Shown here piece after piece: positions 48,478 through 49,360 of a stretch of DNA of 64,000 bases. The notes beneath the pieces were generated by a model. The model was not told where the DNA came from. It saw nothing but the letters and a program-made list of their open reading frames with translations, and made no database searches. Origin of the DNA: Escherichia phage KEP3. The stretch lies in the sequence record PP047753. One strand, 5' to 3'. Positions within the stretch are counted from its first letter, which is position 1. Every line of letters starts with the position of its first letter. Position numbers and translations under genes: made by a program.

Positions 48478-48532
48478 ATTACCAGACCGTTGTTTATCAT
48501 CTTAAGTGCTACCATTACACCAACTCGACATC

Positions 48533-48600
48533 TGCCGAGTGAAGGAATCGAACCTTCGCCTTTTCTTTACCGGAGAAATAGATTGTTTAAGTTTTGCTGT
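48533..48600 (-). pseudogene. tRNA-like 3' fragment (T-arm, acceptor 3' strand, anticodon arm with GGT) lacking pairing 5' half
   Basis: GAAGG-TTCGATT-CCTTC T-arm and TTTCT-CCGGTAA-AGAAA arm present; no complementary 5' acceptor; no CCA. Confidence 0.4.
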
Positions 48601-48620
48601 AAACGGTCTTCTGTAAATTT
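48591..48620 (-). repeat. tRNA-spacer repeat copy 1
   Basis: Identical 30-mer to 49163-49192. Confidence 0.7.
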
Positions 48621-48682
48621 GTTGAGCCAGACCAAGTTTTAAATTTTTCAAAATTAAATTGGCTTGAAAATATCATACGTAC

Positions 48683-48707
48683 TTGCTGAATTTGGTCTTC
48701 TGCTCCT
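48683..48707 (-). repeat. tRNA-spacer repeat copy 4 (degenerate)
   Basis: CTTGCTGAATTTGGTCTTCTGCTCC. Confidence 0.5.
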
Positions 48708-48788
48708 TTAAAGAATACTCGTAAGAACTCTTTAAGGGAGGGGCTAAATAGCCCTCTCAAAACATCATCTTGAAATACTTATTATAAT

Positions 48789-48866
48789 TTGGCGGTTACG
48801 AAGGGATTTGAACCCTCATCATCTCCCGTGACAGGGGAGTATTTTAACCAGATTAAACTACATAAC
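48789..48866 (-). tRNA. tRNA-Asp: tRNA-Asp (GTC)
   Basis: T-loop TTCAAAT, anticodon stem CTCCC/GGGAG, loop CTGTCAC. Confidence 0.7.
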
Positions 48867-48872
48867 CTTTAT

Positions 48873-48960
48873 TTGGTGTGCCGTGTAGGAGTCGAACCTA
48901 CCGAGTCTCAATGACAAGGGATTTACAGTCCCCACCGCTACCATCTACGGGATAACGACA
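48873..48960 (-). tRNA. tRNA-Tyr: tRNA-Tyr (GTA), class II
   Basis: T-arm GTAGG-TTCGACT-CCTAC, acceptor GTGTCGT/ACGGCAC, anticodon loop CTGTAAA, long variable arm. Confidence 0.65.
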
Positions 48961-49032
48961 CATTTTATATTCTATTCAGGCTAAGGACTTGCACCTTACA
49001 AATCGGTGAGCAATCGCTTCTCTCCCAAATTT

Positions 49033-49109
49033 TGGCGGTTAGTCAGGGATTCGAACCCTGTGCCATTCGCTTAACAGGCGACCGCACATACCTTATGTGC
49101 TTCCTAACC
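49033..49109 (-). tRNA. tRNA-Asn: tRNA-Asn (GTT)
   Basis: D-stem GCAC/GTGC, anticodon loop CTGTTAA, T-arm CAGGG-TTCGAAT-CCCTG. Confidence 0.7.
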
Positions 49110-49162
49110 ATGTTTAGTATTACCAGACCGTATCTTTCAATTTTTCCGCTAAGAATTTAATA

Positions 49163-49192
49163 AGTTTTGCTGTAAACGGTCTTCTGTAAATT
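49163..49192 (-). repeat. tRNA-spacer repeat copy 2
   Basis: GTTTTGCTGTAAACGGTCTTCTGTAAATTT abutting tRNA 3' end. Confidence 0.7.
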
Positions 49193-49269
49193 TGGAGGCG
49201 GGTGCAGGAGTCGAACCTGCCGATACCATGCTAATGAGACATGTGAGACGCCCTTTCTCTATACCCGCA
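49193..49269 (-). tRNA. second CAT-anticodon tRNA (Met, initiator or Ile2 type) with 1:72 mismatch
   Basis: T-arm GCAGG-TTCGACT-CCTGC, anticodon stem CATGT/GCATG, loop CTCATTA; T1 vs C72 unpaired. Confidence 0.55.
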
Positions 49270-49332
49270 ATTCTTAATGACCAGACCAAATCTCTTCTTT
49301 GTCCGATTAACTGTCAGATGAATAAGATTAAA

Positions 49333-49360
49333 CTTGCTGTAATTGGTCTTCTGTCAAAAC
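49333..49360 (-). repeat. tRNA-spacer repeat copy 3
   Basis: CTTGCTGTAATTGGTCTTCTGTCAAAAC abutting tRNA-Glu 3' end. Confidence 0.6.

Follow-up and report, generated by a model that had tools for sequence, protein, structure and literature searches.

The tRNA array of Escherichia phage KEP3 raises the question of why a short sequence recurs in its spacers. In the stretch analysed here (64,000 nucleotides (nt) of sequence record PP047753, hereafter the window), the repeat is found four times between positions 48,479 and 49,360, each time followed in the transcript sense by a GGTCTGG box. Our best reading of these sequences is that repeat and box together form a conserved platform for protein binding, shared by four paralogous small non-coding RNAs whose genes lie on the minus strand within the array. 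To this platform belong a closing stem interrupted by an AGA/G internal loop, the motif UACAGCAA in single-stranded form and a G left unpaired; three of the RNAs would be short and Y-like, with variable A/U-rich loops, and the fourth carries a circularly permuted tRNA domain of the YrlA type. These modules are probably Y-RNA-like partners of the Ro60-like protein encoded upstream of them, an orthologue of gp130 of coliphage Bas63, and would be released by tRNA processing. Ro60-Y RNA particles are conserved from bacteria to humans and their functions are poorly understood; to our knowledge, the bacterial and phage examples described so far are restricted to recognisable TROVE proteins.

The Repeat and the Box Pair into a Common RNA Architecture

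ARAGORN detected 26 tRNA genes in the window, all of them on the minus strand, so the array is read from right to left. The window is from a Felixounavirus (Ounavirinae): phages of this genus match the region at 94-99% identity, and in BLAST searches 228 phage records covered at least 80% of it. All four copies of the repeat reported in the initial annotation (48591-48620, 48683-48707, 49163-49192 and 49333-49360) were recovered, as were four CCAGACC boxes, the plus-strand form of GGTCTGG, at 48482, 48627, 49123 and 49281. With the 20-nt consensus of the repeat, TTGCTGNAANNGGTCTTCTG, and up to 3 mismatches allowed, exactly four matches were obtained in the 64 kb (48594, 48683, 49167 and 49334), against 0.33 expected, and this number was reached in none of 100 shuffles. 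Some details had to be corrected. The pair described as copies 1 and 2, identical over 30 nt, is the first and third in the order listed above, and the identity extends over 34/34 nt (48588-48621 and 49161-49194). Likewise, it is not copies 2 and 3 that start at the 3′ end of a tRNA; this is true of the third and fourth, since the repeat at 49163-49192 abuts tRNA-Met (ends at 49193) and that at 49333-49360 abuts tRNA-Glu (ends at 49361).

Read as RNA, the repeat comes first and the GGUCUGG box second, and the two are mutually complementary in all four modules. RNAfold gave one common architecture for each of them: a 4-bp outer helix, an asymmetric internal loop AGA/G and a 7-8-bp inner helix AGACCNN/NNGGUCU, with an unpaired (U/A)(U/A)(A/U)CAGCAA immediately 3′ of the 5′ strand of the inner helix. 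The 5′ side of a module thus reads ACAGAAGACC...UACAGCAA, the latter being the conserved loop motif. The spacing of about 45 nt between repeat and box holds for three modules; after the copy at 48591-48620 the partner lies approximately 105 nt downstream, because a tRNA-like domain is inserted. The placement of the box 11 nt before the next tRNA was found in two modules (11 nt before tRNA-Met and 13 nt before tRNA-Asn), while what comes after the third box is the next module, and after the fourth a 140-nt hairpin RNA. An alternative pairing of GGUCUGG with AGAAGACC downstream of the next tRNA, which would create a stem around that tRNA, was inconsistent across the copies; the pairing within the module fits all four.

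All four modules are encoded on the minus strand, 340-1210 nt downstream of the Ro60-like gene. Modules A to C are short (70-82 nt) and module D comprises 138 nt. Module A (49278-49356, 79 nt), a short Y-like RNA recognised by its fold, by the signature scan described below and by orthologues in phages wV8, Sf17, EP1 and Bas63, is placed between tRNA-Glu and tRNA-Met (starts at 49269). It combines the outer helix UGAC/GUCA, the AGA/G loop and the inner helix AGACCAA/UUGGUCU with the loop motif UUACAGCAA, its CAGCAA lying at 49339-49334. Module B (49120-49189, 70 nt), also short and Y-like by fold and signature scan, occupies the spacer between tRNA-Met and tRNA-Asn (starts at 49109), with outer helix UUAC/GUAA, the AGA/G loop, inner helix AGACCGU/ACGGUCU and CAGCAA at 49172-49167; in EP1 and several contigs of the IMG/VR database its outer helix has undergone a compensatory change to UUGC/GCAA. 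Module C (48624-48705, 82 nt), the third short Y-like RNA, identified by fold, signature scan and relatives, has outer helix GAGC/GCUC, the AGA/G loop, inner helix AGACCAA/UUGGUCU and CAGCAA at 48688-48683. The sequence of the outer helix therefore varies among the copies (UGAC/GUCA, UUAC/GUAA, GAGC/GCUC) and pairing is always kept, and the A/U-rich loop interiors of A, B and C are not kept between genera. The same four modules stand at the same places in Bas63. The module is an RNA structure that shows covariation in every helix, both between copies and between phage genera.

Module D Encloses a Circularly Permuted tRNA-Like Domain

Module D (48479-48616, minus strand), assigned as YrlA-like from its fold, a partial Rfam tRNA match and ARAGORN, has the closing stem UUAC-AGA-AGACCGU / ACGGUCU-G-GUAA, carries CAGCAA at 48599-48594 and encloses a circularly permuted tRNA (48506-48578), which was delimited by folding and by un-permutation with ARAGORN. 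In transcript order this domain comprises an anticodon-like arm of 5 bp and 7 nt (48578-48562), a perfect T arm GAAGG-UUCGAUU-CCUUC (48557-48541), a closed acceptor-like stem ACUCGGC-AGAU-GUCGAGU of 7 bp with a 4-nt loop (48540-48523) and a D arm GUGUAAUGGUAGCAC (48520-48506). ARAGORN did not call a tRNA in the native order. When the halves were re-joined in silico in normal order, it called a complete cloverleaf tRNA-Thr(GGU), with both the window and the Sf17 versions. Rfam gave a partial tRNA match at 48540-48590 (22 bits, model positions 7-64), which was sub-threshold (E ≤ 10); in modules A to C no tRNA features or similarity were seen. In Sf17 and EP1 the acceptor-like stem reads ACACGU-UACG-GCGUGU, a different sequence that still pairs, so the stem has been maintained by multiple compensatory changes.

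A long-hairpin RNA of about 140 nt (48339-48480, minus strand) follows module D directly and precedes tRNA-Lys. Its 22-nt arms show 91% complementarity, with a minimum free energy of -49.2 kcal/mol and z = -5.7, and the stem of 20 or more bp is maintained through compensatory changes in Sf17 and EP1. The inner loop UUAAGCAA (UUUAGCAA in Sf17) resembles the module motif UACAGCAA. This RNA could be Y-like as well, the fifth of the group and of a hairpin type, or else serve as a substrate of RNase III, and its membership in the group is uncertain.

The Upstream Gene Encodes a Protein with the Ro60 Fold

The gene directly upstream of the array in transcript sense (49691-51106, minus strand) encodes a 471-amino-acid protein that is 98% identical to Bas63 gp130 and lies in the same genomic context. 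Pfam recognises in it DUF2828 and DUF7788 only, TROVE not being among the matches, and PHROG 850, to which it belongs, is annotated 'RNA-binding protein'. A phmmer search against the PDB returned nothing, and a profile search against the same database reached the TROVE protein of phage phiLo at E = 1 only, at the DxSGS motif of the vWA domain. Identity to Ro60 amounts to 12-14%. The structure was predicted with AlphaFold2 from a 51-sequence alignment, which gave a predicted local distance difference test (pLDDT) score of 88.9 and a predicted template modelling (pTM) score of 0.88; the single-sequence model reached a pLDDT of only 44. In a Foldseek comparison of the model with the PDB, each of the top 11 matches was a full-length one to Ro60, Rsr or phiLo Ro60, with E-values from 1e-7 to 7e-6, and proteins matching the vWA domain alone scored at most 10.9. 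The model shows a ring of helical, HEAT-like repeats followed by a C-terminal vWA domain with a MIDAS motif, which is the architecture of Ro60. The model of the neighbouring gene's product is a full-length Ro60 fold with unambiguous matches; since the protein is not a member of Pfam TROVE, it is a Ro60 homologue by structure only.

Bas63 gp130 has been described as structurally Ro60-like and as countering the Ppl defence system (PhageMaP preprint, 10.1101/2024.10.10.617714). The same preprint suggests that there may be Y RNAs in the vicinity and that some annotated tRNA genes may be such RNAs, and identifies none, whereas the candidates reported here are unannotated spacers and not annotated tRNA genes. 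In the Bas63 record, two small open reading frames (ORFs) on the opposite strand, bas63_0137 and bas63_0138, are annotated between tRNA-Lys and tRNA-Asp; bas63_0137 overlaps module D and the end of module C, and bas63_0138 is found at the position of the long hairpin.

The RNA Signature Accompanies the Gene in Distant Phages

We examined 80 IMG/VR loci that carry relatives of the Ro60-like protein, mostly at 39-47% identity, with the gene set on the plus strand. The strict signature was defined as a 7-mer, 3 nt and CAGCAA, followed 15-190 nt further on by a 7-mer pairing at 7/7 positions (at least 6 of them Watson-Crick) and then an unpaired G. We relied on a scan written for this purpose and controlled by the opposite strand, by shuffles and by unrelated contigs; because the loop length varies from 30 to 190 nt, a covariance model built on so short a stem would score near noise. 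Results showed 88 strict matches on the gene strand of the 80 loci (0.69 Mb; 343 CAGCAA sites) vs. 4 on the opposite strand of the same loci (248 CAGCAA sites). Twenty local shuffles of the gene strand gave 0-5 strict matches each, about 2, and 120 unrelated viral contigs, scanned on both strands (1.98 M strand-bases), gave 15. These control contigs came from an IMG/VR scan with the 14-base half-motif AGAAGACCN5CAGCAA, which had returned mostly chance single matches; among them, 1 of about 115 chance Felix-type 5′ half-motifs had a 3′ partner.

At least one strict match was present in 54 of the 80 loci, usually outside the gene and within a few hundred nt of its start or stop, and in at least eight further loci a C(U/C)GCAA variant was found just 3′ of the stop codon. 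The matches comprise 49 distinct helix sequences (AGATTAG, TGGTTCC, AGGCTCT, AGCGTGG and others in phages with the same protein), and each of the seven pairs shows three to five pair types. Conserved are the first pair A-U, the second pair G-C, U at loop position 2, the invariant CAGCAA, an A-rich sequence before the 3′ strand and the unpaired G. One locus (47% identity, on an 88-kb contig with 19 tRNAs after the gene) has modules in the tRNA spacers, with the same loop motif on different helices, namely AGAGCAC/GUGCUCU, AGAGCAG/CUGCUCU (with a T arm) and AGGACAC/GUGUCCU.

About half of the elements in the family contain a T loop, and at least 8-10 independent phage lineages show the T arm, the closed stem and the D arm in this same succession. 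In a fixed-register alignment of eight lineages, chosen after inspection, pairing holds in 48/48 acceptor-stem cells, with changes on both sides of each of the six pairs, whereas controls with the register slid pair at 39-49%. Two more lineages have the same arrangement in another register, and three elements with a T loop lack it. In one further locus (L048, 3734-3834) the CAGCAA closing stem encloses a normal-order tRNA-Thr, called by both ARAGORN and Rfam, so the RNA family includes permuted as well as unpermuted tRNA-like inserts. On fifteen distant motif-carrying loci, Rfam reported only tRNAs at its gathering thresholds.

In many phage contigs unrelated to one another, the DUF2828 Ro60-like gene heads a tRNA array that shares its strand; tRNAs occur within 4 kb of it in 18 of 52 scanned loci (L009-L060), all co-oriented with the gene and usually just downstream. 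Yet the signature also adjoins the gene in loci with no tRNA within that distance (e.g., L012, L016, L018, L022, L027, L030 and L032), and it therefore tracks the protein and not the tRNA arrays. The strand-specific co-occurrence of the RNA signature with the DUF2828 protein family across very different phages is strong.

A Proposed Ro60-Y RNA System and Its Alternatives

Two sigma-70-like promoters on the minus strand (49672-49644 and 49581-49552; 10/12 matches each in a consensus scan) sit between the Ro60-like gene and tRNA-Pro and are likely the start of the tRNA and Y-like RNA transcript. Inside the modules, the consensus scan, which is not in itself evidence of function, found no promoter-like or terminator-like site on the minus strand. 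The repeat itself was also considered as a sigma-70 promoter and rejected, as neither inspection by eye nor the scan gave a match within the modules on the transcribed strand. We propose that modules and tRNAs are transcribed together, starting from the promoter pair ahead of tRNA-Pro, and that tRNA maturation releases the modules: RNase P would cut where the following tRNA begins, and 3′ trimming would act at the CCA that precedes the module. The freed RNAs might then bind the ring of the Ro60-like protein through the platform of stem, internal loop and CAGCAA. By analogy with Y RNAs and Ro60, they could gate the ring or tether it to other factors, such as exoribonucleases, and they may contribute to RNA surveillance by the phage or to counter-defence.

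Several observations weigh against such a partnership. Every link between RNA and protein is comparative in nature. The canonical Ro-binding motifs GGUCCGA and GNCGAAN0-1G are absent from the modules, and at E ≤ 10 no family in Rfam 15, Y RNA families included, matches them beyond tRNA. Twenty-six of the 80 loci are without the strict signature, though variants occur in some. The helix covariation table was drawn from elements selected for pairing, and for this reason the enrichment counts provide the unbiased, non-circular evidence. Folded as single sequences, the modules reach modest z-scores (-0.8 to -1.7), so that the case for RNA structure is carried by covariation and not by energy. Finally, gp130 alone, whether plasmid-borne or inserted in T7, restores growth on the Ppl defence strain (10.1101/2024.10.10.617714), and thus at least that activity needs no module RNAs.

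An alternative that we consider unlikely is that the modules act purely in cis, on the processing or stability of the polycistronic tRNA transcript, e.g., as entry sites for RNase III or RNase E or as folding insulators, with no protein partner and no function once excised. It would suit modules A and B, which lie exactly between tRNAs, starting 4-5 nt after the encoded CCA and stopping 8-11 nt before the 5′ end of the next tRNA, and it agrees with the lack of a promoter or terminator of their own and with the many phages in which a tRNA array follows the DUF2828 gene. Most tRNA junctions of the array, however, have no module, and the same signature stands beside the DUF2828 gene in the loci mentioned above that have no tRNA nearby; a simple cleavage site, moreover, needs neither a single-stranded CAGCAA nor a permuted tRNA domain.

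It is rather improbable, too, that stem and CAGCAA make up a cis-regulatory operator in an untranslated region (UTR) of the Ro60-like gene's own mRNA, through which the Ro60-like protein or another factor would act, and not a free trans-acting RNA. In the window the copies are far downstream of the gene, past two promoters and several tRNAs, and they come as multiple tandem copies, one of which carries a complete tRNA-like domain, even though many metagenomic loci do have the element 25-40 nt past the stop codon of the gene or 30-200 nt ahead of its start codon. In known Ro60 systems, too, Y RNA genes directly adjoin the gene of the protein, and UTR and trans roles can coexist.

That the modules are functionless, decayed remnants of duplicated or recombined tRNA genes is very doubtful. 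Module D does have recognisable tRNA parts and its partial Rfam match, and pseudo-tRNAs occur in phage tRNA arrays, some being annotated in wV8. But the short modules show no similarity to tRNA, the permuted order and the closed acceptor stem recur in independent lineages with compensatory changes, and the closing stem and loop motif are conserved among phages whose proteins are only 40-47% identical.

A signal at the level of DNA with a GGTCT core shared by other boxes in the genome, along the lines suggested in the initial annotation, is scarcely credible, whether as a site of recognition, nicking or homing, as a promoter of the phage or as a miniature mobile element: two copies are identical over 34 nt, GGTCTT and CCAGACC are over-represented and an HNH endonuclease gene lies within the array, but it is pairing that is conserved and not sequence, orientation relative to the gene is strict (88 vs. 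4 matches), the boxes at 14-16 kb and 60 kb share 5-6 nt only and lack every other feature, and the modules contain no sigma-70-like promoter.

We return, then, to the modules as probable RNA partners of the Ro60-like protein. On balance, and with more reserve, we also favour a broader interpretation, in which DUF2828/DUF7788 proteins are a large phage-borne branch of Ro60 with a Y-RNA family of its own. That family would be marked by a variable 7-bp closing helix, the loop motif (U/A)(A/U)C(A/N)GCAA and a 3′ G that stays unpaired; some members would also contain a tRNA-like domain, either permuted or in normal order. Felix O1-like coliphages would cut four or five such RNAs from their tRNA operon into a ribonucleoprotein that serves RNA surveillance or counter-defence, e.g., around host immunity that targets tRNA or other RNA. 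If this is correct, a divergent Ro60-Y RNA system is carried by far more phages, among them coliphages that are easy to handle, such as the Felix O1 relatives and the BASEL phage Bas63, and vibriophage-like jumbo contigs, and its RNA partners in the window are located to the nucleotide, which makes the system directly testable. It would account for the recurrent unannotated spacers, with their probably spurious small ORFs, in Felixounavirus tRNA arrays and for the Ro60-like gene so often heading phage tRNA clusters. It would also supply an RNA family missing from Rfam and give a context to the reported anti-Ppl activity of the Ro60-like protein.

GGTCT Words and Other Elements of the Window

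The GGTCT core of the box had been regarded as a possible recognition sequence for a processing, nicking or regulatory factor, shared with boxes at 14-16 kb and 60 kb. Short words of this kind do exceed expectation: GGTCTT occurs 73 times vs. 33 expected, an approximately 2-fold excess throughout the window, and CCAGACC 17 times vs. 4.5. Both are found on both strands and mostly in coding sequence, which makes them unspecific, and codon or dipeptide usage is one possible source of the excess. A shared recognition sequence is not supported, because the boxes at 14-16 kb and 60 kb have only 5-6 nt in common with the modules and neither a partner strand nor CAGCAA, and because the sequence of the GGUCU helix is not kept outside Ounavirinae. 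When the window was scanned for the signature of stem and CAGCAA, only the four array modules matched. There is likewise no indication of DNA nicking, the element being strand-specific relative to the gene and keeping base pairing over sequence. What survives of the proposal is a recognition element for an RNA-related factor, in the form of a conserved RNA stem and loop motif tightly linked to the gene of a Ro60-like RNA-binding protein.

The boxes elsewhere belong to elements of a different kind. On the plus strand at 14300-14450, 15580-15700 and 15850-15960 there are three copies of the repeat TTTTTAAAAGGTCTTTAAAGAGGGTCTTTTAA, of the form TTTTTAAAAGGTCTTT(A)AAGAGGGTCTTTTAA, each placed between a hairpin and a long GGT-rich tract (GGTATGGTAATGTGAGGTATGG...) that comes after it; this intergenic repeat is an element in its own right and has no relation to the modules of the tRNA array. 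Dense 8-mer arrays, CTTAACAG / CTAACAAG, fill 59860-60800 (plus strand), and with up to 1 mismatch GTCTTAACAG is found 22 times vs. 6.6 expected window-wide, clustered in the same interval. These arrays look like iterons and are perhaps an origin or a binding array for a regulatory protein.

Within the tRNA array itself, an HNH endonuclease ORF (185 amino acids, phrog_2255; 47602-48159, minus strand) lies between tRNA-Ile and tRNA-Met. As these two tRNAs are only 2 nt apart in Shigella phage Sf17, the ORF looks like a mobile homing-endonuclease insertion. The tRNA-Met(CAT) next to module A (49193-49269, minus strand), called by ARAGORN and annotated as such in GenBank records, is an atypical phage tRNA: the Rfam tRNA model is silent on it, a 15.9-bit tRNA-Sec match is the only one, and its first acceptor pair is apparently mismatched. 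A tRNA-like sequence at 46902-46976 (minus strand) was not called by ARAGORN and gave a weak Rfam tRNA-Sec match (23 bits); it contains T-arm repeat families common to real tRNAs and is probably a degenerate or unusual tRNA. Besides the modules, a second recurrent spacer element is present, a hairpin-like repeat of about 25 nt of the TTTAAGGACTCTCGTAAGAATCCTT family, with three copies (44840-44864, 47205-47229 and 48708-48732) in spacers of the array.

Comparison with Known Ro60-Y RNA Systems

Ro60-Y RNA systems and the tRNA-like YrlA are established, also in phages (mycobacteriophages, CcrColossus, phage G and phiLo), and in the known systems the Y RNAs are encoded directly beside the Ro60 gene. 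In Rfam 15 and the searchable literature, much subscription literature being outside our reach, we found no description of Felixounavirus RNA partners, of the CAGCAA-stem family or of a link to DUF2828/DUF7788; DUF2828 itself has only incidental mentions, from plants and tardigrades.

The modules share with eukaryotic Y RNAs that they are several paralogous small RNAs, conserved only in a terminal stem with an asymmetric internal loop or bulge and variable in their loops. The sequences differ, however; there is no GGUCCGA/bulged-C helix, and in the modules it is the 5′ strand that contributes the 3-nt side of the internal loop. Y RNAs of eukaryotes, moreover, are polymerase III transcripts, whereas the modules are proposed to be processing products of a tRNA operon.

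In Thermus phage phiLo, Ro60 binds two adjacent Y-like RNAs (Yrl1 and Yrl2) in which a stem flanks a bulge with a CGAA motif (PMC12135203). Its Ro60 is a recognisable TROVE protein and its RNAs lie upstream of the gene, outside any tRNA array; no permuted tRNA domain is reported for them, and the motif is CGAA vs. CAGCAA in the modules (PMC12135203).

The modules also resemble the bacterial YrlA and YrlB RNAs of Salmonella, Mycobacterium smegmatis and mycobacteriophages, several copies of which are likewise encoded within approximately 2 kb of a gene for a Ro60-fold protein (Rsr) and share its strand (Chen et al. 2014, PMC4201824). In contrast to that partner, the neighbouring protein here is a DUF2828/DUF7788 protein outside Pfam TROVE, which sequence searches hardly link to Ro60. 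The modules are also embedded in a tRNA array, module D keeps a full anticodon-like arm, and (U/A)(A/U)CAGCAA with an unpaired 3′ G takes the place of GNCGAAN0-1G. C(A/N)GCAA, which is invariant in the family of the modules, occupies the position equivalent to that YrlA motif, and in all four modules the ends pair into a stem with a short conserved purine-rich motif beside it, as in YrlA and YrlB. In YrlA the terminal stem encloses first a V-like hairpin, then the T arm, the closed acceptor stem and finally the D arm (PMC4201824); module D follows this order as (V)-T arm-closed acceptor stem-D arm, and A to C are shorter and YrlB-like. In M. smegmatis a closed acceptor-like stem of 7 bp makes YrlA a substrate of RNase P and of CCA addition, and as module D has an acceptor-like stem of that length, it may be cut further, into two halves.

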